Positions 13,187 through 54,752 of a stretch of 64,000 nt of DNA are shown here, piece by piece. The notes under the pieces were generated by a model that saw nothing but the letters and a program-made list of their open reading frames with translations, was not told where the DNA came from and made no database searches. The DNA comes from a virus. The stretch lies in the IMG/VR virus record IMGVR_UViG_3300022555_000009; one strand, given 5' to 3'. Within the stretch, counting starts at the first letter, position 1. Each line of letters starts with the position of its first letter. A program made the position numbers and the translations under genes.

Positions 13187-13639
13187 ATGCCTACACCTTC
13201 TTCTATGGAATACCTTAGTTTATTATACAAGGAATTGACTCGAAAACTGGAAACTATTCATAAATACATAGATGCCATCGACAATCAGGTCGGTGACATA
13301 TACCAGTCAGCTTATGAAGGCGTTTATATCTGTAAGCGCAAGTATGAGATCGTAGAAGACTATAAAGAAACAACTCCGAAGATTCATCCTCAAACTGAGT
13401 TCGCTTTTGAGCCGAGGCCCAATAAGCCTAAAAAAGGCGACACTGGACAGGATGTTCAGGAAACTATAGAAGACCTCAACGAAGATTTGAAATCTACCTT
13501 CGCTGAGATCAATTTCCGATTCTCTAAGCAGCAAGGAAACCTAGACAACCTAGGAAAGGTCCACTTAGAGTTACAGAATATTATTAATGAAATATTCCAA
13601 AATTGGAAAACCTTAAATGGAGATGAAGACAAGTTTTAA
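13187..13639 (+). CDS. Hypothetical coiled-coil protein
   Basis: ACTAATT at 13161; SD GAGGG. Confidence 0.6.
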   Translation: MPTPSSMEYLSLLYKELTRKLETIHKYIDAIDNQVGDIYQSAYEGVYICKRKYEIVEDYKETTPKIHPQTEFAFEPRPNKPKKGDTGQDVQETIEDLNEDLKSTFAEINFRFSKQQGNLDNLGKVHLELQNIINEIFQNWKTLNGDEDKF

Positions 13640-15768
13640 CGCTTAATTACCAGGGTATCTGTTTCCTTTAGATTCCTCGCCTTCACTTCTTCTGTCTTCT
13701 CACCCCTTTTAACTTTTACTGTCTCGTCGGCAAAGAATACATATTCTTTGCCGTCTTGATTTATAATGACTTCATTAATTTCAAATTCTTTATTCCTGCA
13801 GAAGACATTCCAACCCGTCGTACTATGTACATCAGCGTTAGGATCTGTTTTATAGGCCTTCAGAAGGAACGCATCATTACCGTCCAAAGCTGCGAGCCTT
13901 AGTTGAAGCCCACTATAATCCATGGTTACTAGTTTACAGTGTTCTATATCAGGTACACTTACAATTTCTTTGACCAGATCAGATCCCAACGAATGAGATG
14001 GCAAATTCGTCCAATTAGGTTCTCGACAAGTATTGCGCCCGGTTTCCGCACCCATGACATTATATACAGGGTGGAGTTTGGACTTACCCAGATCCTCGTG
14101 AAACTTCAAGTGTTGTCTCCAACCCATATTCGTATCTGGTAGTCCTAAGAACGTCTTCTGCAACGTCTTGTATGCTCGGAGCTTCTTAAGAATAGTCGCT
14201 TCAGGTCTTCCCAATTGTTCCCACTGAGTTAACTGCTCGTCGCCTGTTAAATAATAGCCAGACTTAGACATACCACAATTTTCCCACCCAAGCCACTTAA
14301 GTATTTCACCTAATTGCTTACCACTATTAAAATTAGACTCGGGGTCATCTTCATCCGCGCAATCATCAAAGAAGCTATGAAAATCTAGACTCATTACCTT
14401 TAGTCCATGGCCGCCTAAGAATTCTTGTACCTTCAGCTTCTCGCTCAATTCTCTTTGAAGATCCTTCATCTCCTTATCTACATCGAGAGAATTCTTATCC
14501 CAAATATCCATGTCTACTTCGATACCCTGTATTTCAACAGGCACAAACATTTTCATCGCTGGCATTCTTTTCTTTTCAAAGTACTCGCGCACAGTCCACC
14601 AACCCTCTACAGGCGGAGGCCAAGCGAGGTCAATCCAGTTTATTCTTTTCTCCATCGCTTCATACACCTGGAAATTAATGATAGCGTCCATAGTCGCGTA
14701 TTGTGATAAGATTTTTTCAGGTATGTCCAAGTACGTCTTTGGATTGTATCTTTTTTTATAGTCGTCTAAGTCTCTATCATAACCTCCAAATTGCGTATAA
14801 TAGAAAGCTAAAGACTTCAAACTATTAGATCGAGACTCATTCAAAGTCTGTGCCATGGGTAGAGTATCAATATCAATTTTCGCTGTAGATATGCCTGCAT
14901 TCAAAAGAAACTTGACATCGAATTTTAAATTTTGTCCTATCTGGATCTTATTTCTAAAAAACTCGGTAAGTAGATTCTTATCTATTAGATACCAGGGAAT
15001 ATAGAAGCCTTCCCTGCCATCAAAAGACATCGTAATGCAACCTATGCGGTCATTAACAAAATCAAACCCTGATGTTTCCAAGTCCCAGCATACCTTACAT
15101 GATACGGGAGTCCAAGCTTTAAGAAAATTATCAGCCTCATCTGCTTCCATAAGCTTGGTTATTTTTAAGCGCGTGGGACAAGGAGGTTCACTCAAGCCAT
15201 CGTAATTTTTTAAAATCTTTTTGATTTGTATTTCTGCGAAATGCATTCTAAAAGAATCTCTGGGCAAAATTCCCATTGGAGTTATTTTAAATATGTCTTC
15301 TAGAGCGTCAATAGGAAATACGTTACACTCATATTCTCTCGAGTAAAAGTATGTTTGCGTGAACACTATGTCATAAAAACTATTTATGTGAATATTAGAA
15401 TCGCCGGTTATACCATAAATGGCACGACCGGACGTTATCATGATAGTCTTGTCTGTCATGTATGAAAGAATATTCGCTGCGTTTCTCTTATAGTACTCCG
15501 CGACTCCCTCTTTTTTTATCTCTTCTGAAGTCTTGCTGTACTTCGAAAGACTCACAATTCTATAATTGTAGCCTTGAGGTATCTGCCTGTCTAACCATTT
15601 TGTAAAGGCATCCAAGTGCCTTTGATTAGGGAATGTCTCTAAGACAATAATGAGATGAGTCTCATCGTTACTATGAGCTCTCTCGTACAGAAGAGCTCCT
15701 TTTGTTTCCAAGCCGCTCCCCTTTTTAGAAGAGCCTAAAGATACATCGCCGAATGTGAATGCTGCCAT
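13636..15768 (-). CDS. polA: Family A DNA polymerase, N-terminal part (3'-5' exonuclease, thumb, motif A), ending in an intein-like 54-aa tail
   Basis: WDLETSG, GQNLKFD, YATMDA (Exo I-III); ETGRNTCREPNWTN; MDYSGLQLR (motif A); DVHSTT; motifs B and C absent. Confidence 0.9.
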   Translation of the reverse strand: MAAFTFGDVSLGSSKKGSGLETKGALLYERAHSNDETHLIIVLETFPNQRHLDAFTKWLDRQIPQGYNYRIVSLSKYSKTSEEIKKEGVAEYYKRNAANILSYMTDKTIMITSGRAIYGITGDSNIHINSFYDIVFTQTYFYSREYECNVFPIDALEDIFKITPMGILPRDSFRMHFAEIQIKKILKNYDGLSEPPCPTRLKITKLMEADEADNFLKAWTPVSCKVCWDLETSGFDFVNDRIGCITMSFDGREGFYIPWYLIDKNLLTEFFRNKIQIGQNLKFDVKFLLNAGISTAKIDIDTLPMAQTLNESRSNSLKSLAFYYTQFGGYDRDLDDYKKRYNPKTYLDIPEKILSQYATMDAIINFQVYEAMEKRINWIDLAWPPPVEGWWTVREYFEKKRMPAMKMFVPVEIQGIEVDMDIWDKNSLDVDKEMKDLQRELSEKLKVQEFLGGHGLKVMSLDFHSFFDDCADEDDPESNFNSGKQLGEILKWLGWENCGMSKSGYYLTGDEQLTQWEQLGRPEATILKKLRAYKTLQKTFLGLPDTNMGWRQHLKFHEDLGKSKLHPVYNVMGAETGRNTCREPNWTNLPSHSLGSDLVKEIVSVPDIEHCKLVTMDYSGLQLRLAALDGNDAFLLKAYKTDPNADVHSTTGWNVFCRNKEFEINEVIINQDGKEYVFFADETVKVKRGEKTEEVKARNLKETDTLVIKR

Positions 15769-15789
15769 ACGAAATTATATGTTTTTTAT

Positions 15790-15915
15790 TATGTAAATAT
15801 TCGCTTGAAGAAAGATATGAGTTTCTAGATATTTGAATTTCGCATAACTAGAGGTTCGAATTTCGCACATCTATTAATATAAAAATAAGTAATATAAAAT
15901 ATATAAATATTAAGC
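15790..15915. other. AT-rich divergent intergenic region with a direct repeat; candidate replication origin
   Basis: GAATTTCGCA at 15835 and 15858 followed by ~40 nt almost entirely A/T. Confidence 0.3.
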
Positions 15916-16139
15916 CTTGCAGGCTAATTGTAAAAAGCCAGTATTAAGACCTATCATTCTCTTCTTTTTGTATTATTATTCCGCGAAAAGGAACAGACCC
16001 GGACTTTTCGTAGGTATGATTTTTCCTATATACGCAGAAAAAAGAACAAAAGAATCCGCAAAATACTTGCCACCGAGCACACAGCAAATGCTTATATTAT
16101 ATACGTAAGCAAGAAACGAAGAACGCAAGGAGCCAAGAA

Positions 16140-16364
16140 ATGGCACGAATCGCAATCGCGACCGGCAACAAAACCACGAATCACAGGACCGCACGGTCCG
16201 TCGTCACCCAGTACGACGTGAATTCGAAGGAGTGGCAGGACCGCATTACCAATCTTAATCGGGATCTCGATCGCAAGAACGACGGCTCGATTTCCAGGCT
16301 TCCCAACGGCAATACTCCGATGGTCGTCCCCGGCTACCGGACTCGAAGCATCTCCAGTTTCTGA
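16140..16364 (+). CDS. Hypothetical early protein
   Basis: SD AAGGAG; upstream TTGCCA...TATATT promoter-like element. Confidence 0.7.
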   Translation: MARIAIATGNKTTNHRTARSVVTQYDVNSKEWQDRITNLNRDLDRKNDGSISRLPNGNTPMVVPGYRTRSISSF

Positions 16365-16392
16365 ACCTGCACTCTAAAAGGAGAGTTTATAG

Positions 16393-17031
16393 ATGTCAAT
16401 CAACGTGTGTTCCTATAAGATTACCGAGGCTGGTAGTCTTACGAATCCCGAGCCGGCTTCGTTTGCCGAGGTGTCCAAGCCCGACATGAGTCTCCGCAAG
16501 GGAATCACGGTTTACTTCGATACGAAGAAGTATACGGTTCTCGGTCAGGCGCCCATCTACGCGCTTATCAGCGAGGCAGGGGAGGACGTGGCAATTCGAG
16601 TGCGCAAGAAGCACCTCTACGTCCCGAACGACGTTCTCAACGGCACCGCGATCGTGAAGATGGCGGCTCCTGCGAAAGTCAAGGTCGCCAAGGTCAAGGT
16701 CGAGAAGGCTCCTAAGGAGCCCAAGGCTCCGAAGGCGAAGAAGACACTCATTCCTGCTGTCGTGCAGGGTGCGTTCGAGACGCGCATGGCAGAGTTCCGT
16801 ACCGACAGTGGTCGGAGCATCAAGGGCCTTCGCATCGAGAACACGGACGGTGCATCCTTCCGCGTCATTGTCGTGGATCCTACTAAGTCTGGCTGGGTTC
16901 TCATGGCCTCAGATAAGTGGGACATTGGAGCCTACAAGTTCTACAACATCGATACCATGGCGTCGAGAGATTTCGATCGCGCGGCCGATAAGCCGGGCCC
17001 TGGCGATTCCTCGATTGTGTGGCCGAAGTGA
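16393..17031 (+). CDS. Hypothetical early protein with a Lys/Ala/Pro-rich linker
   Basis: SD AAGGAG; KVKVAKVKVEKAPKEPKAPKAKK; GC-rich codons. Confidence 0.75.
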   Translation: MSINVCSYKITEAGSLTNPEPASFAEVSKPDMSLRKGITVYFDTKKYTVLGQAPIYALISEAGEDVAIRVRKKHLYVPNDVLNGTAIVKMAAPAKVKVAKVKVEKAPKEPKAPKAKKTLIPAVVQGAFETRMAEFRTDSGRSIKGLRIENTDGASFRVIVVDPTKSGWVLMASDKWDIGAYKFYNIDTMASRDFDRAADKPGPGDSSIVWPK

Positions 17032-17034
17032 AAT

Positions 17035-17060
17035 AGAGGGGGACCTTAGGTCCCCCTCTT
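17035..17060 (+). terminator. Strong hairpin (terminator-like)
   Basis: AGAGGGGGACC-TTA-GGTCCCCCTCT; weak T tract. Confidence 0.6.
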
Positions 17061-17076
17061 AGGTGGAGAACATTAA

Positions 17077-17220
17077 ATGCGTAAGACGATTGACATTACG
17101 ATGATGGACGGACAGGTGATCAAGGCTCCGCTGTGCCTGGTGTGGTGTGATATCAACGATACCCATACCGAACTCTATTTCGTATGGAAAACACCATATG
17201 GATGGATGCTTGTGTCTTAA
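17077..17220 (+). CDS. Small hypothetical protein (47 aa)
   Basis: Manual ORF MRKTIDITMMDGQVIKAPLC...; SD GGAG. Confidence 0.55.
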   Translation: MRKTIDITMMDGQVIKAPLCLVWCDINDTHTELYFVWKTPYGWMLVS

Positions 17221-17434
17221 TGAAGACAGATATCCATCCCTATGGGACCACGCCGAGCCCATCGAGTTCCCGGACGTGTGGACGTTCGGCAAGGCGTGGG
17301 ACGACGAACCAAATAATTTCGTATGGGGATATTTTAAGCTGGACGATAATGGCAATTGGTTTCGCAAGAATAAGCGGGGTTCGTGGATCAACTTCACGCC
17401 CGGCCTCCCGCCCGCGACCATAGAGGGGGAATGA
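17198..17434 (+). CDS. Hypothetical Trp-rich protein
   Basis: Frame of track ORF 17147; its stop overlaps the next ATGA. Confidence 0.5.
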   Translation: MDGCLCLNEDRYPSLWDHAEPIEFPDVWTFGKAWDDEPNNFVWGYFKLDDNGNWFRKNKRGSWINFTPGLPPATIEGE

Positions 17435-17817
17435 TGGACAGGTACACCGAGACGGCGCGGAAGATAATTGGGATTATTGACTACAACCGTGACGAAGGAA
17501 GCTACACCGATCCATCAAAAGTAGCCGCCATCCTCCGCGAGGAGTTCCCCGAGCCCGCGCAGGACGCAATGGGTGTTGCTCGGCAGATAGCGCCTATATT
17601 TTGCTATCCTGTCGATTATCCCGGTATCGACGAAGCCGCCGCCCTCATCGAAGCCTACGCTCGCAAGCGCGTGGGGGGGGCGGCGGATAGGGCAGGGACA
17701 TGGCTGAATACGCAATTCGGTGGTGGTGGGTTTGAAGATAATCCGGCAATCCAGCGGCTACGCAGCAGACAGCATATTTTCCTGCGCGCCGCGATCATCG
17801 GCAAGGAGGAAGTATGA
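17431..17817 (+). CDS. Hypothetical protein
   Basis: SD GAGGGGG; ATGA coupling at both ends. Confidence 0.6.
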   Translation: MMDRYTETARKIIGIIDYNRDEGSYTDPSKVAAILREEFPEPAQDAMGVARQIAPIFCYPVDYPGIDEAAALIEAYARKRVGGAADRAGTWLNTQFGGGGFEDNPAIQRLRSRQHIFLRAAIIGKEEV

Positions 17818-18239
17818 CCAGGGATCAGATCGACAAGGTGCGCAATGCGATTGCATACGGCAAATGTCTGTCGGAACGCGAAAATGGTGAGCGATGTACT
17901 GTTACAGAGCTTTTTACGGAGGCCCTCGCCCTCCTCGACGCTGAGGCCGCGCAGGACAACGTAGACCGACATGTCTACAAGCTGACTGTGCAGCAACGTG
18001 ATCTTGCATGGACGCAACTCAGGACAGCCGAGGTTGTGGAACGAGAGCTTGAGGCAAGAATCAAGGATTGCGAGACCCGCGAGAAGGCGCTCAGGGAGGC
18101 GCTTGACAACGCGGCGGCACAAATCGAATCACTAGCGCTATCATTTCAAAGCCACGGCATCATGGAGCATTACGACCGGGCTTTGAAATGCGCCTACGCT
18201 GCCCGTTCCGCCTTGCTCGGCCCAGGAGGCGAGGGATGA
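17814..18239 (+). CDS. Hypothetical coiled-coil protein
   Basis: SD AGGAGG; ATGA coupling. Confidence 0.65.
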   Translation: MTRDQIDKVRNAIAYGKCLSERENGERCTVTELFTEALALLDAEAAQDNVDRHVYKLTVQQRDLAWTQLRTAEVVERELEARIKDCETREKALREALDNAAAQIESLALSFQSHGIMEHYDRALKCAYAARSALLGPGGEG

Positions 18240-18260
18240 TCAGATAGATACATAACTTTC

Positions 18261-18292
18261 AAAAAGTCCTCTCTAAGAGAGGACTTTTTTTT
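18261..18292 (+). terminator. Intrinsic terminator
   Basis: AAAAAGTCCTCTC-TAA-GAGAGGACTTTTTTTT. Confidence 0.9.
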
Positions 18293-18400
18293 ATGCCCGT
18301 ATAGCTCTCCAAAGCGCCTTAGGTCCTCTCGTTATAACTCAATTTTCCTAGTAAGAAGAGAGAATTTATGCCGTTACACTAATTGATAAGGAGCCTCAGA

Positions 18401-18997
18401 ATGTATATCGATGAGTATCAACCTATGTCAGAAATGCACACATGGATGAAGGGACGTGGAGTTGATGTAAATGTATACATATGCATTCAATCGGTGCTGA
18501 GTTTGGGAGACGAACGAAAAAAAGATCTTGACGTCTTTTTAAAAACATTCGGAGGACCATTCACTCTCCAGCATAATGGATCTTTTCATGAATACGATTG
18601 GAATATTTACACGAAGCCTAGCATAGGATACTATTACAATAAATACTTAGCCAGCGGCCCAGGGTATGATAATCCCGGAAAGCTTTACACTATAGATTTA
18701 AAAGATGGATCCTATGCATCAGAGCACACGCATGTTTTTATCAAAACAGCTTTATATGAAGTTTTAAAAAGACATGAGGATCTTCATTGGTATATCGTCA
18801 ATGATTTCATGGACTCAGACTCCGGACCCTCTAATTCTAAATTCAGAGGCCATGAAGTTCTATCGACGGAAGAAGTAAAACCGTTTCTTGAAGATGAGCT
18901 GGTCAAAGCGGTTGCGTCGTGGAAGATGAGCAAAGAGAATTATAATGAAGGTGGGGCCGGACAAATGCCAAGAATGATTAAGTTAGGCCTATTATGA
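18401..18997 (+). CDS. Hypothetical protein
   Basis: ACTAATT at 18378; SD AAGGAG before ATG 18401. Confidence 0.65.
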   Translation: MYIDEYQPMSEMHTWMKGRGVDVNVYICIQSVLSLGDERKKDLDVFLKTFGGPFTLQHNGSFHEYDWNIYTKPSIGYYYNKYLASGPGYDNPGKLYTIDLKDGSYASEHTHVFIKTALYEVLKRHEDLHWYIVNDFMDSDSGPSNSKFRGHEVLSTEEVKPFLEDELVKAVASWKMSKENYNEGGAGQMPRMIKLGLL

Positions 18998-19476
18998 TTG
19001 ATGTAGATTTTCTATATGCAGTATTCCAGCCCTGCCCTCCTCGTAACATAGTATGGTATTGGTTAGACCCTCAAAAACAAAGTTACAAACGAGTATCTAA
19101 AATTGATTCTTTCATAGAATTTGTTGAGAATAAAAATAGAAAAGTGCTACCTCAGATGAAGGAGGCCCTATGCACGTACTCTTTTTGGATGTGGAATCAA
19201 GTCGACAATAGGGTGATTTTATTACATCCTTCCGATGCACAAGACCGCACCTATAGAGATCCGCTCGCCAGTTACTTTAAGAAGGGGCTAAAAGGGCAGG
19301 ACCCCTTTGCACCAGAAGAGCAAGATCCTTTGAGTCACTTATATAAACTCGGCTTTCAGATGCCCAATGAAGATGATATTAAAAATCTCAGAGTCAGAAT
19401 GACCCCTACAAAACAAAAATCTTTTTTGGCGCGCATAGGAAACATCTTACCAGGAAATACCTCGCGAAAAAAATAG
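18994..19476 (+). CDS. Hypothetical protein
   Basis: ATGA coupling to the upstream gene. Confidence 0.65.
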   Translation: MIDVDFLYAVFQPCPPRNIVWYWLDPQKQSYKRVSKIDSFIEFVENKNRKVLPQMKEALCTYSFWMWNQVDNRVILLHPSDAQDRTYRDPLASYFKKGLKGQDPFAPEEQDPLSHLYKLGFQMPNEDDIKNLRVRMTPTKQKSFLARIGNILPGNTSRKK

Positions 19477-19488
19477 CTATATTCTAGT

Positions 19489-20469
19489 ATGAGGAATCAT
19501 CCATATAGTACAGATCAAATAAAGTTAGCCCTGCGAAAACTCGGCGTCAAGTTTCCCTCGAGCATCGACTCTAAAGATAGAGCCATGGCTCATTGTCCTT
19601 TCCACTCTGACAGTACAGCTTCGATGTCTATCGATTTTACACGTGGAATCTTTCACTGCTTCTCTTGTGACGCATCCGGCTCCATCAACACCTTATCTGA
19701 AAAAATGACAGGAAGAAAACTCGATGTTCTTCTAGGCGTCGATACTTCTTTCTCCATGTTTTCAGGTCATATAAAACAAGAGTACACCCCAAAACCAATT
19801 AATGAAGAAGATGTCACGATTGATGTGCGAGGCATCGTCGCTCCTTGGACCCATGTGCCAGAAGCTATTGGGTATGTAAAATCTAGATTCATACCTCCAA
19901 GAATAGCAACGGCGATGCAAATGGGGTTCATCAAAGAAGCGTATGTGAATGGCACGTACTATGAGGATCGCTTAGTGATTCCTATCTATGGAAAATCTGG
20001 CAAGCTTATCAATCTTGAAGGTAGGGACGTGACAGGAACTCATAAACTAAAGTGCTTATATCCTCACGGTATAACGAAGACAATCTATGAATGGTATAAG
20101 CTTGACAAAGAGAAGCCTTTATATGTCGTTGAGGGACTGACGAAGATGGCTTGTCTTCGCGGCGATGATTATTTTGCGAATTCGACCACTATCTTCGGGG
20201 CATCCGTAACCGCATATCAGATGGATTTACTTAGCGAATTTAAGAAGGTCGTGTTAATACCGGACAATGATGAGCCTGGAAAAAAGGTTATCGATACCTT
20301 TAAAAATAGATTAAGAACTAAATTCGATGTTATGAGAATACAGGATACAGCAGCAAAAGATATTGATGAGATTCCTCGTAAGCTTGGTCTCGGCGTCGAG
20401 GAATACAGAAAGAAGGGCGGATTTCTCATACAAGGTTTCACTTCTTTTCTTTTCGGGGAATTTGCCTGA
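19489..20469 (+). CDS. dnaG: DNA primase (CHC2 zinc finger + TOPRIM)
   Basis: CPFHSD...S...FHCFSC; RLVIPI...GR; YVVEG; PDNDEPG; KDIDE. Confidence 0.9.
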   Translation: MRNHPYSTDQIKLALRKLGVKFPSSIDSKDRAMAHCPFHSDSTASMSIDFTRGIFHCFSCDASGSINTLSEKMTGRKLDVLLGVDTSFSMFSGHIKQEYTPKPINEEDVTIDVRGIVAPWTHVPEAIGYVKSRFIPPRIATAMQMGFIKEAYVNGTYYEDRLVIPIYGKSGKLINLEGRDVTGTHKLKCLYPHGITKTIYEWYKLDKEKPLYVVEGLTKMACLRGDDYFANSTTIFGASVTAYQMDLLSEFKKVVLIPDNDEPGKKVIDTFKNRLRTKFDVMRIQDTAAKDIDEIPRKLGLGVEEYRKKGGFLIQGFTSFLFGEFA

Positions 20470-20494
20470 CTAATTTAAATGAAGGAGATCAAAC

Positions 20495-20776: not shown

Positions 20777-20781
20777 CATAA

Positions 20782-22147: not shown

Positions 22148-22178
22148 CCGCTCATATAATATCATATATTATAGTTAA

Positions 22179-23144
22179 ATGATATTATATGATGTGTTAA
22201 TTTTCGACAGTTTAAATTTTCTGTACCGAGTGAGAAGTGATAAGAATGTAGACTGCAGCAATCTTGTGAAGATAAGCAATAAGGTTGTTATGGTTGATCT
22301 CATTAGAGCCTACCTCGATACAGTCTTTTACTTAGAACAAAAATACCTGGCCTCTGATGGTCGGGTATTTTTGTTGTTTGATAATGCCACTAGTAGGGAC
22401 GAACTCAAGAAGATGTTCGCTCCTCTTGCGCCCACTAAGTCAAGAAAAGAAGTAGATAATGCCTACAAGGAAAATAGAATGACGGAGTCGAGAGAGTTTT
22501 ATAATACTCTCGATTTAATCAAATACTATTACATGGTGTCTTCTTCAAAGTATCGTACGGCTCGCATACAGGGACTGGAAGCAGATGACTTAGTTAAGCC
22601 TTGTATTGATTCTATTCCCAATAGTAAAATTTTAATGATTACTAATGACTCTGATTGGGCGAGATACTTAGATAGCAACACCCATTATCTTCCTCACACA
22701 TTCGAGCCTCCTGTAACTGATGTGATGTTTCAAGCTAAGCGAGGGTTCTATCCAACTGAGGAGAAGATTATTTTAGATAAGATTCTTTTCGGTGACTCCG
22801 CTGATAATGTAAAAGAGGTCTTGCCTGAGCTACCGAAGGCTCTGAGAGAACAGATTCGCAGCGATTTCGATTGCATTCAAAATTTTATTCTAAATTATGA
22901 ATTATATACACCGTTAAAAGAATACGTGACCTTAGTGAGAGATAGACTACCAGAATTGCGAATCGCATATCAGATGGTGGCTACAATTCCTGTAAGTGAC
23001 AAGCACTTTTTTTACAGTTGTTCAATAGGCCGGGATTCTAAGGTTCAGCGAACAGCTATAGAATCTGTCTTGAAGATAAACAATGTTAATGTCACATTTG
23101 AGTTCGGCGATATAAAGGTTCCGAGGGTTAATCCAGTTGGGTAA
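22179..23144 (+). CDS. 5'-3' exonuclease / flap nuclease (T4 RNase H-like)
   Basis: IFDS.N, LLFD, YKENR, EADDL, TNDSDW, GDSADN. Confidence 0.85.
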   Translation: MILYDVLIFDSLNFLYRVRSDKNVDCSNLVKISNKVVMVDLIRAYLDTVFYLEQKYLASDGRVFLLFDNATSRDELKKMFAPLAPTKSRKEVDNAYKENRMTESREFYNTLDLIKYYYMVSSSKYRTARIQGLEADDLVKPCIDSIPNSKILMITNDSDWARYLDSNTHYLPHTFEPPVTDVMFQAKRGFYPTEEKIILDKILFGDSADNVKEVLPELPKALREQIRSDFDCIQNFILNYELYTPLKEYVTLVRDRLPELRIAYQMVATIPVSDKHFFYSCSIGRDSKVQRTAIESVLKINNVNVTFEFGDIKVPRVNPVG

Positions 23145-24123: not shown

Positions 24124-24132
24124 CTATGAATA

Positions 24133-25209: not shown

Positions 25210-25264
25210 TAGCCAGAAGACTAATTAGATATGGTGTTATTTACTATAATAGAGAGGCTGCAAG

Positions 25265-27400: not shown

Positions 27401-27413
27401 GGAGTTTTAGAAA

Positions 27414-28079: not shown

Positions 28080-28097
28080 TTAGAAACTTTTAAAAGT

Positions 28098-45889: not shown

Positions 45890-45910
45890 CTAAAAATAGG
45901 AGAGAATAAA

Positions 45911-47046: not shown

Positions 47047-47089
47047 GCAGTATACATAGGACTAATTTCTAATAGAGAGGAATACTCCA

Positions 47090-47788
47090 TTGGATTTTAT
47101 AGGCCTCACCTTTTTTATACCTTCCACCTTGTTAGTTATATGGGGAACCTTTATAGCTACCAAGTATTACCTGTCGGAGAAGACGCGATTTGAAGACTAT
47201 TATCTTCTCCTGGCGATAGCGAGTTTTTTTGGCAAATTTTTACTGCAATCTTTCATCCTAGTAACTAATAATTTAAGTCCCAGCCTCGTTTTCATGGTCC
47301 AGGCTTTACAAACTTGGACCTATTGGTTTTTGTTGATCTTCCTATTCAAAAGAAATTTTTTCGAAGCCAAATTAAAAAGAGTCTTATGGATTCTTTTGAC
47401 CTTGATTATAGTGATAGGTAGCACCATCCTCATAGCCAGCAGTTCTTTCCAAATAGATCCCGTCGTATACGTAGCGAAGTATCCAACTCTAATGAAGATG
47501 GACTATCTCTTAGATGATAGCTTTGTTAATACAACTCAGTACTTAAGAGTATTCATGCTAGGCCTTTGCGTGTGGTTCTCTTGGAGACTACTGAAAAAGC
47601 CATCCTGGATGTTTTTCGGCGCCTCCTTTCTTTTTCTAGTTGAACTTTTTACATTCTATAATAATCTACCCTGGAAATTTCTTCCTTCATGCTTTATATT
47701 CAGAATAATCCAAGTATTTGAATTAATTTCTATCATATGCATATCTTTAGATATGAAGTTATATTTTGGTAAAAGAGATTCTAAATGA
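47090..47788 (+). CDS. Polytopic membrane protein (~7 TM)
   Basis: About seven hydrophobic segments; ACTAATT plus SD GAGG with TTG start. Confidence 0.65.
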   Translation: MDFIGLTFFIPSTLLVIWGTFIATKYYLSEKTRFEDYYLLLAIASFFGKFLLQSFILVTNNLSPSLVFMVQALQTWTYWFLLIFLFKRNFFEAKLKRVLWILLTLIIVIGSTILIASSSFQIDPVVYVAKYPTLMKMDYLLDDSFVNTTQYLRVFMLGLCVWFSWRLLKKPSWMFFGASFLFLVELFTFYNNLPWKFLPSCFIFRIIQVFELISIICISLDMKLYFGKRDSK

Positions 47789-48813
47789 CTGAAGCTCCTG
47801 CTAGTGCAGTAACGCCTGCTGTCGTGTCTTTATTACACGACATAATCAGCAAACCTTTTTGGGAATCCGCTGTGCTGATAGTCCTAGCAGGTCTTGTGAC
47901 ATTTTTTGTTGTAGGCGGTCTTGCGTTCGCCCTATCGCGAATTCGAGGGGAGGTAGATATAGATTTCTTATCTTTGTTCCGTATAGGTAAGAAAAGAGAA
48001 GAACTAACTTCTAGAAATGATATCAATATCGTAGTAAATAATACCCCACCCTCAACTTCCGCTGAATTCGTTAAAGAGGAGAATAAGCTTTTGAATGAAA
48101 TGATAGGGGCAGAAGACATGGTTGAAAAAGATGAGATTATCGCGGAGAAAACTCCTGGTGATCCCGATAACGTCTTGCTTATGGTTATTAGCAAGAGCGT
48201 TAGATTCGGATCGGATATCTCCAAATACAAAGAAGTGTACTTAATAAAATCTCAGATGGCTGCTGCGGAGTTGAGGTCGAATATTATTGAAAATATTCTT
48301 ATAAAAGATTACATGGAGGTAATATATAAGAAAAATTCAAAAATCAACATTCAAGATGACCAGTCCTATCGAATCTTTGAAGAGATAGTCCATAACCAGG
48401 CCCATAGAAATATCTTAGCAGTCTTGCGTAGATTGTTCAAAGACAATCATTTAACTCAATACGACGAAGAAGGCTTCAATGAGTACTCAAGTGTACAATG
48501 CGAAAGAATAATAACGCAAATGAAGTTATCTATAAATGGGTCTATTCCTAGTTTTCTTGATCCGGGTCGAGAAGCAGTAAATATAATCCTTGATCGCTCG
48601 AATCAAGCGCTCTTAGAAACCTTCAAAGATATTTTTTCTGAAGCCCGTGTTTTAGCTTTCAGAACAGAGTCAGTTATACGTAAAAAAGAAAAAGACTTCG
48701 ACGATGAGATAAAGAAGCTCACGGGAATTTCAGAAGCTCATAAAAGGGCTGATATCGCTTCTGAAGATCCCTATGCTATAAACTATAAAACAAGGGAATT
48801 AAAATATGAGTGA
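47785..48813 (+). CDS. N-terminal TM protein with a large helical soluble domain (possible holin/antiholin partner)
   Basis: TM SAVLIVLAGLVTFFVVGGLAFAL; ATGA coupling. Confidence 0.5.
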   Translation: MTEAPASAVTPAVVSLLHDIISKPFWESAVLIVLAGLVTFFVVGGLAFALSRIRGEVDIDFLSLFRIGKKREELTSRNDINIVVNNTPPSTSAEFVKEENKLLNEMIGAEDMVEKDEIIAEKTPGDPDNVLLMVISKSVRFGSDISKYKEVYLIKSQMAAAELRSNIIENILIKDYMEVIYKKNSKINIQDDQSYRIFEEIVHNQAHRNILAVLRRLFKDNHLTQYDEEGFNEYSSVQCERIITQMKLSINGSIPSFLDPGREAVNIILDRSNQALLETFKDIFSEARVLAFRTESVIRKKEKDFDDEIKKLTGISEAHKRADIASEDPYAINYKTRELKYE

Positions 48814-49102
48814 TACTACTGTAGTAAATACAAGCGTTACTGTAAATACAAAGCCTTTGGGATTCTTTAGAGACCCCTCAGGAGACTTGAGTTCAGGAAG
48901 GCTTGTAAAGATAGGCTCTTTTTTCGCAGCCATTGTTATTGGCTTAGCAGGATTAGGTGTATTAAGTTACGCCGCAATCTATCCTGCGGCAACAGTTAAC
49001 GCAGCCTTGACACCACTTTCCAGCTACTGCTTAGGAATTGCTGGAATGTTTTTAGGCGTCGCCGGCGGATCTGAGATCGTACAGAAAGTTACTAAAAGTT
49101 AA
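48806..49102 (+). CDS. Putative holin (2 TM)
   Basis: 98 aa; FFRDPSGDLSSGRL followed by two TM segments and a basic tail. Confidence 0.5.
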   Translation: MSDTTVVNTSVTVNTKPLGFFRDPSGDLSSGRLVKIGSFFAAIVIGLAGLGVLSYAAIYPAATVNAALTPLSSYCLGIAGMFLGVAGGSEIVQKVTKS

Positions 49103-49171
49103 GTCCCACTGGAGGACACACACTAATTATAGAGTTAGGAGCCTCATAGAGGTAAATACAAAGGAGATCAT

Positions 49172-51028
49172 ATGGCAACTATTAAGAAATCCCTGAAGAA
49201 GGGCGGCGAGGCTCGTTGGACGTTCCGAGGAGCTCAGTCGGGAGATTTTTTCACAATTCCAAACGGATTCCGAGTCGCTACCGACGGCGTTGTTTTAGAG
49301 AACAATACAACCGTTCCAGTAGAAGGAACCATTTCTATCGGTAAGGGCAGCGTTCCTATTTTTGGAGCTTATGCCTTCACACTCAGCACTCTTACGACTG
49401 CTACCACAGGTACTATTACTGCTGGTGGTGCGTTGAGCTTCACCACAGCTCTGACTGCTGCTCAGGTTACCGCAGTTAACGCTCTCGGTAACACAGCGGC
49501 TGGATTAGCTCTCTTCGCATCTTCTCTTGTAGGTAATATCAATGCAACAGCGGCAGGAGCGGCTGCAGCAGCAGCAGCAACTACCAATCCTGGATACCTA
49601 TCCCCTTGGACAGTATCTTCTTCTGGTGCAGTTATTACCTTCGTGGCCCCTGTTCCAGGCACTGTCAACACAGCACCTACCTTCACGGGCTCAGCTGGTG
49701 TAACAATCAGTGCAGCTGTTAACACGGCAGTTGGAGCAAACGACGTTTCTGTTCTATCTGGTTACTCTGTAGCCTCCTTGGCCCCAGGAGCAATAACTCA
49801 GGTTACTTTGCCTGCGCCTATCTACAACGACGTGGCTACCGGTGGAAGACTTAATACTGTTTTCACAGGTACAACTTCAGGCTCTGCGGGATCATATGTT
49901 CTCTGTGGAAAGACAGTAAGTATTCCAACATCTACCACGGCCCTTCAAACCGGAGTCGTACTAGGCGGACGTTCTATTTATGTCTCTACGATATCTGGTT
50001 ACGTAGGTACAGCAGGTATCACTGTTAACGGCGTCGCTGTTACGGCTCTTGCTTCTTCTCTCGCCGGTATCGTTAACGGCATCGCAAATACTAACGTTCC
50101 AGGATGGACTATATTCTCTGACGGCGCAACAATCTTTACAATGATTGCTAACTTGCCCGGTCCGACATCAATGCCTGTTATAGTGACTGCAGGTCAGTTC
50201 ACTAACACACCATCTACCCAGACTGTGGGCTTCAATCTTCCTGGTTATATCGCTGACACTTCTACTCCGATCGCAACTACAATTACTTTAAACGGTAACG
50301 CTGGTGCATTAGCTTCTGCTGTAATCGGTGGAAATTATGTCGCAGCTCCTTATCTCGCTGCATTGACTTATACTCCTACTATAATGGCCCCCGTCTTTGC
50401 TGGATGTGCGTGGTACCAGGGAGTTATGACTGGTGCGCCAACTGCAACTACTCAGATAGTTATTGATGGTGTTTCTTCGATCGCTTGTGGTGCAACTTCT
50501 CTAGCTTCCCTGATGACTGCCATGGCTGGTCTATCAGGCGTTAACTGGATTATCACAAACGTAGCAGGCGGCTCCTTCCTGATGGTTAACACCGTCCCAG
50601 GATATCACGCTCCTCCTGTGATTTCTTTCACCAACAACAACAACGCTGCTGTGGGTACTATTACTTCTGGTCCAGGATTTACTCTTTCTGGCTACACCCA
50701 GACTTACACGGCAACGACCGCAGTGTTTACTTCTCAGGCTACTACTTATGCGCCTGGAATGTCTTTCTACCCCGTGGTAGCTCCTACTACTCAGACTTGG
50801 ATTAAGAATGCGGCTTACAGCGGCTCTACTGGTGGCGTTATTGTATCTAACGATATTGTAAACACCGTGGGCTACTCGGCTCCAACTCTCACAGTAGGAA
50901 GTACAATCGGTACTCAGACCTATGTGAATACCCTCACTTCAACTGATACTCCTTACTTCTTTACCTTCTCTCGTTCTGAGATGCATGGTAAGACCAATGT
51001 GTCAGTTCTTCTAAAGAAGTGGTCGTAA
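49172..51028 (+). CDS. Abundant virion structural protein (decoration/fibre-like)
   Basis: Own ACTAATT promoter, SD AAGGAG and terminator; T/A/G/V-rich. Confidence 0.5.
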   Translation: MATIKKSLKKGGEARWTFRGAQSGDFFTIPNGFRVATDGVVLENNTTVPVEGTISIGKGSVPIFGAYAFTLSTLTTATTGTITAGGALSFTTALTAAQVTAVNALGNTAAGLALFASSLVGNINATAAGAAAAAAATTNPGYLSPWTVSSSGAVITFVAPVPGTVNTAPTFTGSAGVTISAAVNTAVGANDVSVLSGYSVASLAPGAITQVTLPAPIYNDVATGGRLNTVFTGTTSGSAGSYVLCGKTVSIPTSTTALQTGVVLGGRSIYVSTISGYVGTAGITVNGVAVTALASSLAGIVNGIANTNVPGWTIFSDGATIFTMIANLPGPTSMPVIVTAGQFTNTPSTQTVGFNLPGYIADTSTPIATTITLNGNAGALASAVIGGNYVAAPYLAALTYTPTIMAPVFAGCAWYQGVMTGAPTATTQIVIDGVSSIACGATSLASLMTAMAGLSGVNWIITNVAGGSFLMVNTVPGYHAPPVISFTNNNNAAVGTITSGPGFTLSGYTQTYTATTAVFTSQATTYAPGMSFYPVVAPTTQTWIKNAAYSGSTGGVIVSNDIVNTVGYSAPTLTVGSTIGTQTYVNTLTSTDTPYFFTFSRSEMHGKTNVSVLLKKWS

Positions 51029-51050
51029 TTTAAACGAATTTTCGAAAAAT

Positions 51051-51076
51051 AAAGGAGGCTGAAAAGCCTCCTTTTT
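51051..51076 (+). terminator. Intrinsic terminator
   Basis: AAAGGAGGCT-GAAA-AGCCTCCTTTTT. Confidence 0.9.
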
Positions 51077-51107
51077 AATTTAATTAGAGATGTACTAATT
51101 TGGAACG

Positions 51108-51551
51108 ATGTACCAAAACCCCAGAACTCTATTTCAGCAGCGTATAAATGGTCTTCTAAAAGATCCGGAATGTTCTCCTATGTTTGAGGATATCTTTAAA
51201 TTGCTGCAGTTATATGCCTTAGAAAAATTAACGCCCAATAAGCCTGATGAGTCAAACTGGAAAACTCTGTTGCTTATGTACGAAGAACTAGGCCCATCTG
51301 GGATGGCTAAGCTCGTGTCCTTGGCTAAAGGCAAAGCCATAACTTTCCCTACAGAAGAAGAGTTTCAAGACTCTGTAATAACTACTTTAAGTTATTACTA
51401 TAAGGAAGTAGAGAATAAGAATTGGGACGAAATTAAAAAGATACTGAATCAGCCGGATCTGAATACTATTAAGTTCGGCATTCGCGTACGGAATTTCTCG
51501 ACGTTTATAAATGAACAGTTGTTGAAAAAATTCAAGAAGGTAGAAATATGA
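51108..51551 (+). CDS. Hypothetical protein (possibly Mor-like)
   Basis: ELG...MAKLVSLAKGKAITFP resembles the Mor-family N-terminal motif. Confidence 0.4.
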   Translation: MYQNPRTLFQQRINGLLKDPECSPMFEDIFKLLQLYALEKLTPNKPDESNWKTLLLMYEELGPSGMAKLVSLAKGKAITFPTEEEFQDSVITTLSYYYKEVENKNWDEIKKILNQPDLNTIKFGIRVRNFSTFINEQLLKKFKKVEI

Positions 51552-52024
51552 AAAACAAAGATTTAGAGGACGCAAAAAACATGTTAACTGCTACGTTGGT
51601 GGAATCCACTAAAACACCAACCTTATACGACCCTTCTACAGAAGTAGAGAGATCATTATCTAGCTTTCTTCAACATAGGCTGACCAAATTGCAGGAGGAC
51701 GCTTCAAGAGAAGAAACTATATGGGAGGCTATAACAGAGAGAGTCTCTGAGTTCAATCCTGATCAGCTAATGAGGCTTCTAAATATTCTACAAGAGAATA
51801 GTAACTCAGGCGTTGAAAAAATCCTGAGTCCTTTCATTCCGAGAGCAGGGGAAAGAATTCCCCTCTTGCCTGACAACTCAAAGAAGAGTAAGGATATCGT
51901 CGAAGAGACAATATTCAATGAGTCTGGTAAAGATTTGATGGAGGCCTTTTCCGAATTGAACTCCCTAGTGAGGGAAATGGCTAAGACAAGAGAAACTGAG
52001 GATATAAAGAAAGTACTGTCGTAA
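51548..52024 (+). CDS. Hypothetical helical protein
   Basis: ATGA coupling. Confidence 0.6.
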   Translation: MKNKDLEDAKNMLTATLVESTKTPTLYDPSTEVERSLSSFLQHRLTKLQEDASREETIWEAITERVSEFNPDQLMRLLNILQENSNSGVEKILSPFIPRAGERIPLLPDNSKKSKDIVEETIFNESGKDLMEAFSELNSLVREMAKTRETEDIKKVLS

Positions 52025-52041
52025 AATATACTTTTCTGTAT

Positions 52042-52071
52042 CTTTAGAAAGGAGGTGATCCTAATCTAAAG
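52042..52071 (+). promoter_or_regulatory. Hairpin containing a 16-nt perfect complement of the 16S rRNA 3' end
   Basis: AGAAAGGAGGTGATCC at 52046-52061 inside CTTTAGA...TCTAAAG and AGGA/TCCT stems. Confidence 0.6.
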
Positions 52072-52110
52072 GTGACGAAAATGTACAAAAATAAAAGGTA
52101 GGAATATGCT

Positions 52111-52142
52111 AAGAGGCTCTCTGAAAAGAGAGCCTCTTTTTT
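52111..52142. terminator. Intrinsic terminator between convergent genes
   Basis: AAGAGGCTCTCT-GAAA-AGAGAGCCTCTTTTTT. Confidence 0.9.
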
Positions 52143-53958
52143 ATACACTACTCATCTCAAATATCATCTTCGCTGTATTACGATCTAAGTACTGTTGAGT
52201 ACCGAACTTTTTAGTTGTGAAGTCCTTATCTTCCAAATTCATATCTCGAACACAATCTAAGGAGTTATCAATAATTAGGAGATAGGTGTACACCGTCTTC
52301 TGTTGCCCAATACGATGAATACGAAATATAGATTGGTTATACTCTGTATAATTCCAGGTTCTATCAAAGTAAATAGCTATATTAGCCTCAACAATAGTCA
52401 CGCTGCTATTAAGAACCTGTATGCCCGCAATAAGAATATTGCGATCTTTCGAGGCTTGAAAATCTGCTATGATATCTGCCTTGAATTCATCCAGGGTCCT
52501 CCCCTTCGGTACTTTGACTTCCCCGTTGATGAGATAGGGCTGCCTCTTTTCTAAGATTACCGCCAGTTCTTGACCGACTGTAGGATGAGAGCACCATATA
52601 ATAATTTTTTCGTTAGGATGCTTTTCTAAGAGATCATCCAAAGCTCCCATCTTACAGTGATTAGAGAACTTAAATTTTTCGACCTTGCGAATAAGATTGT
52701 CTGGTAACTTTGTTTCATGGTTTAAAAGTAAGCTTGGATTATCGATGGCTAAGGAGAGATAGGGGAAAGAATTAAACACAGCTCGAGAGTCTATGCCTCC
52801 GTAAAATTCTTGTATGGCTCGTAGTTTTTCTACAACGATTCCTTGGTAGATTTCCTTCTGCTCATCAGATAGCTCCACATAAATCTTCTGTATGAAGTGC
52901 TCAGGCAACTCCAAAACGTCGTCAGCAAATCTTCGAGTAGACACTGATTTTACAATATCAGCCATCTCTATAAGTTTATTGGGTTTGAAGTAATTGATAG
53001 CATATAAAGAAAATCTATTGCCAGTATCTGCATACTCTTGTAGCCACTCGAAGTAAGAGAAATTCTTTACTAAGGCGGGATCTAAGAACTTCAGCTGTGA
53101 GTAGTACTTCTCTTCTCTGTCTGCAGGAGTTCCTGTTGCAATGTATCTATACTGAAAGAAGGGAGCGGCAAGGTGTATGGCCTTAGATTGCCTGGCTTGA
53201 GGATTCGCGATATTATGTGATTCGTCCAGGATAATGATGCCAACATCTCCCTGAAGCCAATCTCGAAAGGGAATAGGACACTTACGATAATTCTTTGAAT
53301 TGGATATCTCTTCCTGATACTCATCAGATACTAAGAGGAAAGATCGGTAGCTGCAGATGACAACATGAGATTTCACGTCGTCAAAAGGTCGCCGGTTTTT
53401 AATTCCCCCAACTCTAACATCTGATGAGTCATAGTTAGAAAATCTCCCCAGTTCTCTCTTGATATTGTAAGTGCCAGACCCTGAGGTAATGATAAGTACT
53501 TTTCTGACGTCTTTGTATTTACGGAGTAATTCAAGGGTGTTACATAGTATCCAGCTCTTCCCGGTACCTTGTTCATTAAAAAGAGCATATCGGTTGTAAC
53601 TGGAGCATTTAGATAGGTCTTCGAGTTGGAAATATTCATGCGGCGCCTTCCCCATAATGGGTTGTACTTTTAAATCATCTTTAGTAAAAGGAATTCTTTG
53701 AAATTCGATCGATCTCTTGGGAGTCTTCAATATCTCTATCTGAGACCATACTTCGTTTGTAATATAAAGTTCTTCTACGTCTCCCAAAGCGTCTATGACA
53801 GAGTCATAAACAGACGTCGGAATACACCACTGTTTACTCTTTGGTTCAAACTGACATCGATATCTCTTATATATAGTAAGATCTGTATCGAAGGCGTTGA
53901 CCGAGAATAATTGACTGGCATATATTTTATCGTCGCGAACTAGAATCTGAATGCTCAT
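52141..53958 (-). CDS. SNF2-family helicase
   Basis: EQGTGKS, ILDESH, TGTP, QSIFRIHRIGQ. Confidence 0.9.
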   Translation of the reverse strand: MSIQILVRDDKIYASQLFSVNAFDTDLTIYKRYRCQFEPKSKQWCIPTSVYDSVIDALGDVEELYITNEVWSQIEILKTPKRSIEFQRIPFTKDDLKVQPIMGKAPHEYFQLEDLSKCSSYNRYALFNEQGTGKSWILCNTLELLRKYKDVRKVLIITSGSGTYNIKRELGRFSNYDSSDVRVGGIKNRRPFDDVKSHVVICSYRSFLLVSDEYQEEISNSKNYRKCPIPFRDWLQGDVGIIILDESHNIANPQARQSKAIHLAAPFFQYRYIATGTPADREEKYYSQLKFLDPALVKNFSYFEWLQEYADTGNRFSLYAINYFKPNKLIEMADIVKSVSTRRFADDVLELPEHFIQKIYVELSDEQKEIYQGIVVEKLRAIQEFYGGIDSRAVFNSFPYLSLAIDNPSLLLNHETKLPDNLIRKVEKFKFSNHCKMGALDDLLEKHPNEKIIIWCSHPTVGQELAVILEKRQPYLINGEVKVPKGRTLDEFKADIIADFQASKDRNILIAGIQVLNSSVTIVEANIAIYFDRTWNYTEYNQSIFRIHRIGQQKTVYTYLLIIDNSLDCVRDMNLEDKDFTTKKFGTQQYLDRNTAKMIFEMSSV

Positions 53959-54752
53959 TGGAGATTATGCTCCTTGAAATATTTTCTCCAGTCTACGCCG
54001 CCTTTATAGTACTCCCCCTCACGAGGATCTGCGATAACAATATCTACTGTCAAAGGAACACCCTTCTGCCAGGGTTCCATTCTTTCAAATATTTCTTTGA
54101 TCTTGGCTATCACCTCTTTCATTTCATTATCCCAGATAATGAAATCTACAGAGTCGTGAACCATACCTTGTATATAGGATTTAATATTATTGGCTTCTTT
54201 CCAGATTTGGAAATCGACCATGCAACCCATTACTTTACAAGCCTCATCATTTTGAATAGTCGTGTTGGCTAAGATATTATAAAGGCCCGCTACTTCTTTT
54301 CTATCCTCATCCTTACCTTTTAGCATAAGAACTGGCGTTCTGCGAATTGCTCCGTGGTAAGAACGAACATATCCCTGCTCCTCGCCTATCTGCTTATTAC
54401 GCTCAATGCGATCAGCAAGTCCTTTATATGTCTTAAAGAATTGGTCTCGAATATAATCAGCGACCGTAATGTAGCCCCACATTTTAGGTTCTACATCTTT
54501 ATACTTCTTAGCAATATTAAATTTCTTGTCGTAGAGCTGAAATTCCTCTATGAAGTCGTCGACCTGCTCTTGCGTCCATTTTACAGATAAAGTAGTCTCG
54601 GCGAATGTTATGGAAGCCATACCGAATAAAAATCCGAAGTTAACTGCTTTCGCCATTTGTCTGTATACATCGTAAATGTTATCTTTCTGGCGCAGTCTCT
54701 TAAATTCAATTTCTGTTATGGGCCTCATGACTTTTCTATGTGTGATTTTCAT
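53955..54752 (-). CDS. polA: Family A DNA polymerase, C-terminal part (motifs B and C)
   Basis: RQMAKAVNFGFLFG (motif B), GYVRSYHG..RR, NTTIQ, MVHDS (motif C); start moved to ATG 54752 (MKITHRK), 6 nt after TATATT. Confidence 0.9.
   Translation of the reverse strand: MKITHRKVMRPITEIEFKRLRQKDNIYDVYRQMAKAVNFGFLFGMASITFAETTLSVKWTQEQVDDFIEEFQLYDKKFNIAKKYKDVEPKMWGYITVADYIRDQFFKTYKGLADRIERNKQIGEEQGYVRSYHGAIRRTPVLMLKGKDEDRKEVAGLYNILANTTIQNDEACKVMGCMVDFQIWKEANNIKSYIQGMVHDSVDFIIWDNEMKEVIAKIKEIFERMEPWQKGVPLTVDIVIADPREGEYYKGGVDWRKYFKEHNLQ

Follow-up and report, generated by a model that had tools for sequence, protein, structure and literature searches.

The stretch of viral DNA considered here (64,000 nucleotides of IMG/VR record IMGVR_UViG_3300022555_000009, referred to in its entirety as the window) encodes a family A DNA polymerase (PolA) in two separate pieces. 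The gene for the N-terminal piece, PolA-N (positions 13636–15768, minus strand), specifies 710 residues arranged as an N-terminal domain, a 3′-5′ exonuclease with motifs Exo I–III, the thumb, palm motif A with Asp617, the first half of the fingers, and a C-terminal tail. Pfam recognizes the exonuclease (DNA_pol_A_exo1, PF01612) and the polymerase domain's N-terminal portion (DNA_pol_A, PF00476, positions 29–198 of 381). The gene for the C-terminal piece, PolA-C (53955–54752, minus strand), specifies 265 residues that comprise a short head, the remainder of the fingers with motif B (R31 and K35), and palm motif C (H199 and D200), covering DNA_pol_A positions from about 200 to 376. A preliminary description of this DNA had distributed the exonuclease motifs and motif A to one gene and motifs B and C to the other, an assignment with which both the reading frames and the Pfam matches agree.

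The break falls in the fingers loop directly before the O-helix (motif B) and cuts the catalytic domain between motifs A and B. Residues D229, E231, D284, Y357, D361, and D617 of PolA-N are invariant in an alignment of 52 homologues, as are R31, K35, H199, and D200 in the alignment of the PolA-C family. Each half supplies one catalytic aspartate, that of motif A coming from PolA-N and that of motif C from PolA-C, and the defining features of a family A polymerase (Exo I–III, motifs A, B, and C, and the carboxylates) are present only in the two chains combined. With the catalytic residues divided in this manner, neither PolA-N nor PolA-C should be active alone. The two genes are 38 kb apart on the same strand, with the C-terminal half first in the direction of transcription, a distance and order that rule out joining of the halves by cis-splicing, frameshifting, or translational bypass.

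Both chains carry additional sequence at the break. After DVHSTTGWNVF, PolA-N continues for 54 non-polymerase residues (Cys657–Arg710; 13639–13800, minus strand) to a TAA stop codon, and PolA-C opens with the ten basic residues MKITHRKVMR (54723–54752, minus strand), behind which polymerase sequence runs from PITEIEF to RQMAKAVNFG. The two segments are present as first described, and the start of PolA-C has gained support from the conservation of its ATG at 54752 in 18 aligned homologues; an upstream TTG at 54800 is disfavoured. Because the nearest unsplit relatives, proteins of about 850 residues, read VF-RND-VSVEEF across the site with nothing between, tail and head together amount to an insertion of about 64 residues in the fingers loop. 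Absence from intact homologues is one mark of an assembly tail, and this module is indeed missing from the nearest unsplit PolA. The tail is conserved as strongly as the enzyme itself, with G36, A43, and D50 retained in 54, 53, and 55 of 55 homologues, respectively. The head follows the pattern M-x-I-x(6)-R in 18 homologues, in which R10 is invariant. The two segments also differ systematically in charge: tails average −4.8 and are negative in 91% of cases, and all 18 heads carry +2 to +4 over their ten residues.

Conservation and history of the split

The identical 710-residue PolA-N occurs on 22 contigs from independent assemblies, the longest of 170.6 kb. Related phages share the same break. 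About 70 clusters of N-halves (680–730 residues, 26–64% identity) have the same end point and the same type of tail, roughly 50 residues long, and about 20 clusters of C-halves (roughly 262 residues) open with M-x-I-x(6)-R followed by I-T/S-x-x-E-F. The recurrence of one protein on 22 independent contigs and of its stop position in dozens of diverged relatives means that the split is not an assembly artefact; it is real, old, and selected. A complete relative of 305,833 bp, bounded by terminal repeats, encodes a single N-half and a single C-half, which lie on opposite strands with 208 kb between them; a search of that whole record detected no intact polA. That the genes might instead be decaying fragments of a dead polymerase gene, or a product of misassembly, would accord with halves lying 38 kb apart in reversed order, but it is barely credible in view of the agreement among independently assembled contigs, the invariance of the catalytic residues, the identical ends in dozens of clusters, and the lack of any other polA in the complete relative.

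The distance between the halves varies widely. They are 33 and 83 kb apart in two fragmentary relative records, and in IMG/VR relatives the partner gene is found 4–6 kb downstream or directly upstream, or else falls outside the 10-kb flanks. Judged by these arrangements, each half acts as a gene in its own right, the two together specifying a two-subunit enzyme in a group of large phages known only from uncultivated sources. An IMG/VR search with the single PolA-N sequence returned no relatives, whereas an alignment query did retrieve them. The best tblastn matches among 50,697 phage records have about 25% identity or less, and there is therefore no close cultured relative.

A quick maximum-likelihood tree of the N-half core, computed with the module columns excluded, places the window protein's family in a setting from which some of this history can be read. 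A 58-row clade (SH-aLRT support 97) is almost wholly split at the fingers site, and its sister clade is mostly unsplit and without the module, which occurs there only sporadically (P0064, L028). Contiguous alleles, for which the preliminary description had recommended a search, do exist, and two of them retain the module. The first, P0056 (989 residues), lies deep among the split forms (supports 99 and 100) and is most simply regarded as a re-fusion; P0150 is the second. At a further locus, L009, the halves are 4 kb apart and a SegE-like GIY-YIG gene (L009:15080–15805) stands directly upstream of the PolA-C gene. The sporadic distribution of the module, together with this GIY-YIG gene, fits descent from a mobile 'fractured gene' element that would have lost its endonuclease and whose halves would have become uncoupled. 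An SPFH/Band-7 gene also lies between the halves in L009.

Some relatives show fragmentation beyond a single break. In one relative (L028:9716–13525 and L027; protein P0145), PolA is apparently in three pieces: a break before motif A has its own AxDLxEGDEL-type tail and M-I-T-S-I-K-K head, and is accompanied by a contiguous copy of the fingers module and a true intein at motif B (RTTAKF/C...VVPN/C, slashes marking the junctions). In a subclade comprising L022–L025 and L029 (P0070, P0071), the N-half ends before motif A and the C-half gene is directly upstream; a search of the surrounding 10 kb recovered no motif-A piece, and a third piece may therefore lie elsewhere. L032 has a motif-A-like stretch immediately after the N-terminal open reading frame.

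Relationship of the module to the HINT fold

The sequence of the tail resembles that of inteins, specifically the later part of the N-terminal fragment (IntN) of a split intein. A profile built from 16 tails and compared with 177,635 Protein Data Bank (PDB) sequences ranked two inteins first, NrdJ-1 (8ubs, E = 0.027) and 9hth (E = 0.3), and both alignments fall immediately after intein block B. In a profile-profile comparison with hhalign, 55 tails were set against five inteins, namely the IntN of a ribonucleotide reductase (RNR) gene in the window, NrdJ, and four inteins inserted at motif B in members of this PolA family. The tails aligned to the region TxxH...AxxLxxxDxL, extending from block B to N4, with a probability of 95.5% and P = 1.4e-8; for the reversed control P was 0.089, and among 30 column shuffles the best value was 0.19. 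Against 1.84 billion representative proteins, the tail profile found 82 matches at a library-wide E ≤ 0.001. Alongside PolA tails, these include numerous genuine IntN fragments that possess TxxH and are carried by RNR and terminase proteins (for example P0139, E = 2.6e-8), and where checked, the matching region is the IntN half of Pfam Intein_splicing. Within the window, a hidden Markov model (HMM) of the tail applied to 933 open reading frames matched only PolA-N and the end of the NrdJ IntN, ...TPDHKILTKNRGWVEAQHLQPTDELIHD (E = 1.9e-6), precisely the stretch to which the tail had been likened in the preliminary description.

Predicted structures lead to the same fold. In P0056 the head follows directly on the tail, and this natural contiguous module was modelled with AlphaFold2 (AF2) at a pLDDT of 81.8 as strands, a short helix, and then a final strand formed by the head (residues 48–56). 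Its existence as a contiguous segment allowed tail and head to be modelled as one chain. Exhaustive alignment of this model with 48,161 PDB chains placed inteins in all of the first ten ranks (Z 4.1–2.9). Of the 28 chains reaching Z ≥ 2, about 22 belong to HINT proteins, and the matching region is the central part of the intein (in gp41-1, for instance, residues 37–105). The window tail modelled alone (pLDDT 84.8) recovered HINT proteins in all of the top 24 places in the same set of chains (Z 5.8–2.7). In the ESM Atlas, the first matches are PT-HINT (TM 0.72), then Intein_splicing and Hedgehog Hint; in BFVD they are proteins of phages whose annotations read intein region, large terminase, DnaB, or RNR; and Foldseek on the PDB lists the NrdJ-1 and RecA inteins first. 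Foldseek E-values are non-significant on their own (best 0.18 for the PDB and 0.12 for BFVD), and for these searches only the filling of the top ranks by inteins was counted. Inteins thus head the results for tail or tail-plus-head models in four structure libraries. The modest absolute Z-scores reflect the comparison of only half of a small domain, and the weight of the structural evidence lies in the near-exclusive enrichment of HINT proteins and its agreement with the sequence statistics.

From profiles and models combined, tail and head make up roughly half a HINT fold, with homology to IntN in its second half and to the first strand of the C-terminal intein fragment (IntC). The tail corresponds to a four-stranded remnant of the block B/N4 half of IntN, and the head to the first β-strand of IntC; neither block F nor block G follows it. 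The half-HINT identity proposed for the 54-residue tail is in this way borne out by profile and structure comparison alike. A different origin would be an ordinary lineage-specific insertion in the fingers that was later cut, its HINT likeness arising by convergence of a small β fold. Such an origin could draw on the absolute Z-scores, which are at most 5.8, on the existence of a contiguous form, and on the lack of a match to any Pfam intein model among 52 tails. It is nonetheless improbable, because convergence would have to account for library-wide significant matches to true IntN fragments in the homologous register, an hhalign P of 1.4e-8 with clean controls, HINT proteins at the top of four independent structure libraries, and the same type of tail at the broken ends of unrelated enzymes.

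Loss of the splicing determinants

Homology to an intein does not extend to the residues that catalyze splicing. The first roughly 45 residues of IntN, including block A and N2, are absent. The first column of the tail, occupied by Cys657 in the window, contains Ala in 23, Cys in 16, Val in 4, and Tyr in 4 of 55 tails, and the Cys that follows VF is not a relic nucleophile under selection. In block B, aligned in the hhalign register, the Thr of TxxH is replaced by Phe, Leu, or Tyr, and the position of the His is Glu in 41 tails, Gln in 9, Asp in 3, and Lys in 1, with His in 0 of 55. Blocks F and G, the terminal Asn (or Gln), and the +1 Cys, Ser, or Thr are likewise lacking. The head ends instead in an invariant Arg followed by a variable residue, and native polymerase sequence resumes after about ten residues; the Thr or Ser found three residues past the head belongs to that native sequence and is also present in unsplit relatives without the module. 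None of the 52 N-halves matched Pfam PF14890, PF01079, or PF07591 at E ≤ 10, whereas the N-half of the phage's own NrdJ does match PF14890; single-sequence HMM scans of this kind are too insensitive for the tail, and it was the profile searches that found the relationship. By the composition of these positions, the module is not an intein, all splicing determinants having been lost. The absence of TxxH, of most of block A, of block F, and of the His-Asn/+1 junction, noted initially for the window alone, holds across 55 tails and 18 heads.

True inteins in this phage and its relatives provide a direct comparison. NrdJ in the window (9697–12423, minus strand) is encoded by two genes 27 nucleotides apart that carry a true split intein, with an IntN of 105 residues (11634–11320) that has Cys1 and TPDH and an IntC of 32 residues (11289–11194) that ends in Lys-Asn before a +1 Cys. 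No endonuclease gene lies in the 27-nucleotide gap. In this PolA family, true inteins occupy another site, after the motif B sequence RQxAK, and are either split (P0061 with P0100; L012) or contiguous (P0115, L028). They would exemplify the form of a working element in these PolA genes. Of these working-looking inteins, inserted at RQxAK/C (P0061, P0100, P0115, L012:4359–6683), at least two end in Gly-Gln, not His-Asn, before the +1 Cys.

The module might still be supposed to act as a minimal, atypical split intein that trans-splices the PolA halves. Its tail in the window begins with Cys, a Thr or Ser follows the head, and both cysteine-less and atypically split inteins are known (9hth). This is very improbable. 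Cys is found in only 16 of 55 tails and the block B His in none, there is no block A, F, or G, no terminal Asn, and no conserved +1 nucleophile, the Thr or Ser is native extein that unsplit relatives share, and contiguous P0056 keeps the module in frame. The smallest working inteins are, moreover, about twice the size of the module, which has about 64 residues.

A proposed docking function

The preferred interpretation is that this phage assembles its PolA non-covalently from two polypeptides encoded by unlinked genes, through a docking module derived from a dead split intein; we assign it a probability of roughly 0.7. The acidity of the tails, the basicity of the heads, and a weak complex prediction are the grounds on which a docking role is proposed. 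Residues 652–710 of PolA-N and 1–30 of PolA-C, without the polymerase body, gave an ipSAE score of 0.41, compared with 0.02 for the best control, with at least 84% agreement in contacts among runs and a pLDDT of at least 59 for the partner. The tool's verdict is 'weak support'. Among 80 solved complexes, 58 attained that mark, as did 2 of 110 mismatched pairs; scores of 0.60 or under account for only 7 of those 80 and for both of the mismatches that passed. Restricted to tail and head, the complex prediction proposed at the outset places their pairing above controls, with a score that remains in the weak band.

A mechanism can be outlined by analogy with working split inteins, in which, as summarized in PMC11766414 (citing Shah et al. 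2013), an anionic, disordered IntN captures a cationic IntC before the fold collapses. A former split intein would have been cut down to its docking core, comprising the second half of IntN (about 54 residues, now on PolA-N) and the first strand of IntC (about ten residues, now on PolA-C). Its catalytic parts have been deleted or replaced, namely block A and the nucleophile, the Thr and His of block B, blocks F and G together with the terminal Asn, and the +1 nucleophile. The acidic tail would then capture the basic head in the manner of IntN and IntC, and the captured head would complete a small β-sheet at the tip of the fingers. By pinning the two halves of the fingers together, this sheet could allow the motif A Asp of the N-half and the motif C Asp of the C-half to form one active site, in which case docking would be needed for activity. 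The structural and evolutionary core of the earlier proposal, that half of a HINT fold has been retained in PolA without its splicing determinants, stands; its domestication as a heterodimerization clasp is suggested by charge complementarity and complex prediction.

Several observations weigh against this interpretation. That the halves bind each other and require their tails to do so is something we infer, and all structures discussed here are predictions, with the complex score in the weak band. The window's own tail has a net charge of 0, unlike most of its relatives. P0056 and P0150 keep the module although they are contiguous and need no clasp; the module may do something else in these proteins, or they may be recent re-fusions. 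In the fragmented NrdA of Aeromonas phage Aeh1, the one analogue examined experimentally, deletion of a tail blocked higher-order assembly, and the halves still bound (PMC3045599). Finally, the genome is at least 170 kb long and the window shows 64 kb of it, which leaves room for a second polymerase in this phage.

These points bear most directly on an alternative in which the module is likewise intein-derived and conserved, and the halves are held together by the interface of the split polymerase fold itself. Tail and head would then serve some other role, such as positioning the fingers, binding a replisome protein (the SNF2 helicase, for instance), or higher-order assembly. The Aeh1 precedent, in which the tails are essential yet dispensable for binding between the halves, speaks for this possibility, as do the retention of the module in contiguous P0056 and P0150 and the low score of the predicted tail-head complex. 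We nevertheless consider it unlikely, although the most serious of the alternatives. In every split relative the cut passes through the module and leaves one of its strands on the other chain; the complementary charges of tail and head match the docking of split inteins; and P0056, being nested within the split clade, may be a recent re-fusion.

Genomic context and expression signals

The 38-kb interval between the PolA genes contains genes for a primase, a 5′-3′ exonuclease, a metallophosphatase, and baseplate and tail-fibre proteins. No homing endonuclease gene was detected among the neighbours adjoining PolA-N or PolA-C in the window. Immediately downstream of PolA-C, a SNF2-family helicase gene (52141–53958, minus strand) begins at an ATG that overlaps the PolA-C stop codon (ATGA), an overlap from which it is probably co-transcribed with PolA-C. 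On the other side, a divergent SbcC-like gene starts at 54764, 11 nucleotides from the PolA-C start.

Each PolA start codon is abutted by a putative −10-like element on the minus strand: CATATAAT-N5-ATG at PolA-N (15766–15781) and CATATATT-N6-ATG at PolA-C (54750–54766), the latter inside the 5′ end of the SbcC-like gene. The general pattern CATATAWT-N4-8-ATG has five matches in the window (5898–5914, 15766–15781, 22163–22181, 54750–54766, and 60999–61013), compared with 0.72 expected, and abuts the start codons of three replication genes, those of PolA-N, PolA-C, and the 5′-3′ exonuclease (22179). This distribution is consistent with one promoter class common to these genes and a leader that is minimal or absent. 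A sigma-70 consensus scan found no −35/−10 promoter at either PolA start, the common element being a −10-like box only. Of the matching leaderless −10 promoters initially proposed, the shared and enriched CATATAWT box therefore stands, and a −35/−10 pair was not detected in that scan.

Other features of the window are recorded here for completeness. G+C content rises to as much as 0.54 in positions 16001–18000, compared with about 0.40 elsewhere, and the open reading frame at 16393–17031 contains a repeat stretch rich in lysine, alanine, and proline and has no family match. A 623-residue protein encoded at 58590–60461 (plus strand) carries a QueE-like radical-SAM domain in its last 200 residues, which hints at 7-deazaguanine modification of the DNA.

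Wider occurrence and implications

The PolA tail profile also matches, at a library-wide E ≤ 0.001, the extreme C-termini of N-terminal fragments of other enzymes (P0184, P0193, P0192, P0157, and P0168), among them a family B DNA polymerase, DnaE (the α subunit of polymerase III), a superfamily 2 (SF2) helicase, and a T4-type RNA ligase. Neither TxxH nor a Pfam intein match is found in these five proteins. Judging by these matches, fractured phage genes seem quite generally to carry tails of the half-HINT type. The broader proposal, that the acidic tail and basic head of PolA are one case of a widespread, portable class of non-covalent docking devices derived from the 'capture' half of split inteins, is tentative, its odds in our estimate falling slightly short of even. 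If it is true, phages would use such modules to keep fractured essential genes working, with a scope that takes in PolA at two or more break sites, family B polymerase, DnaE, SF2 helicase, RNA ligase, and RNR, and the modules would constitute a natural set of split-protein connectors that leave the chains unjoined.

For intein evolution, such a module would represent a third fate besides persistence and precise loss, in which the catalytic parts decay and the docking core survives as a lasting interface between subunits. It would also explain how a cut through the catalytic domain is tolerated and how the genes could drift tens to hundreds of kilobases apart. A practical consequence concerns the annotation of large phages, in which PolA halves are easily called truncated or partial polymerases. 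With a tail of roughly 50 residues and a head of roughly ten, and with many diverged variants, the modules would also be candidates for orthogonal non-covalent tags for split proteins.

Comparison with known systems

Full-text literature searches on degenerate or non-splicing inteins and on split PolA returned no published description of this PolA arrangement. Two polymerases divided between genes offer partial parallels. In S-SBP1-like phages, a T7-like PolA is encoded in adjacent exonuclease and polymerase genes, the only split PolA in a 2023 reclassification (Czernecki et al. 2023, PMC10201439). Here too a phage family A polymerase is made from two genes, but the S-SBP1-like split falls between the exonuclease and polymerase domains and adds no module, whereas the PolA in the window is cut within the catalytic polymerase domain itself, so that motif A is separated from motif B. 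The family B polymerase of PhiKZ is encoded by two distant genes whose products, gp82 and gp50, form a stable, active complex (bioRxiv 10.64898/2026.09.30.755723). Like the PolA described here, this replicative polymerase of a jumbo phage is split inside a large insertion. It differs in family and in being split in the palm, and no relationship to inteins or HINT proteins is reported in the preprint, where 'intein' occurs 0 times.

The closest relatives of the PolA tail in both sequence and structure are the naturally split inteins of 'fractured genes', a group that includes gp41-1, NrdJ-1 (8ubs), and IMPDH-1 (Dassa et al. 2009, PMC2677866). In these inteins, and in the unlinked DnaE intein of cyanobacteria, the break likewise follows block N4 and an acidic IntN meets a basic IntC. 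The fractured-gene and DnaE inteins splice, however, and leave a seamless protein. The PolA module, without blocks A, F, and G, TxxH, or the nucleophiles, must stay in the mature enzyme. Fractured genes typically have adjacent halves with a homing endonuclease between them, an arrangement not seen in the window, although the GIY-YIG gene of L009 fits such descent. In the model of Dassa et al., the endonuclease is predicted to be lost and the halves to become uncoupled in the genome (PMC2677866).

The nearest functional precedent is the fragmented RNR of Aeromonas phage Aeh1, encoded as nrdA-a, mobE, and nrdA-b, in which the halves bear tails that originate from a mobile element (Crona et al. 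2010, PMC3045599). Both systems divide an essential replication-related enzyme into two separately translated chains that are joined by neither RNA nor protein splicing, and both possess unique, oppositely charged C- and N-terminal tails that are missing from intact homologues. The polarity of charge is reversed relative to Aeh1, with PolA having the acidic N-half tail and the basic C-half head. In Aeh1, the NrdA genes flank a homing endonuclease gene, the tails are without demonstrated fold or homology, and the arrangement comes from a single phage. In PolA, the tails correspond to half of a HINT fold and recur in about 70 clusters. The PolA genes are separated by 38 kb, a distance that reaches 208 kb in relatives, and in the window neither half has an endonuclease beside it. 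Crona et al. speculated that the Aeh1 tails are degenerate intein remnants (PMC3045599). The rescue of a fragmented essential gene by element-derived tails was thus known already; what appears to be new is the occurrence of such tails, in the form of a widely conserved half-HINT module, in PolA.

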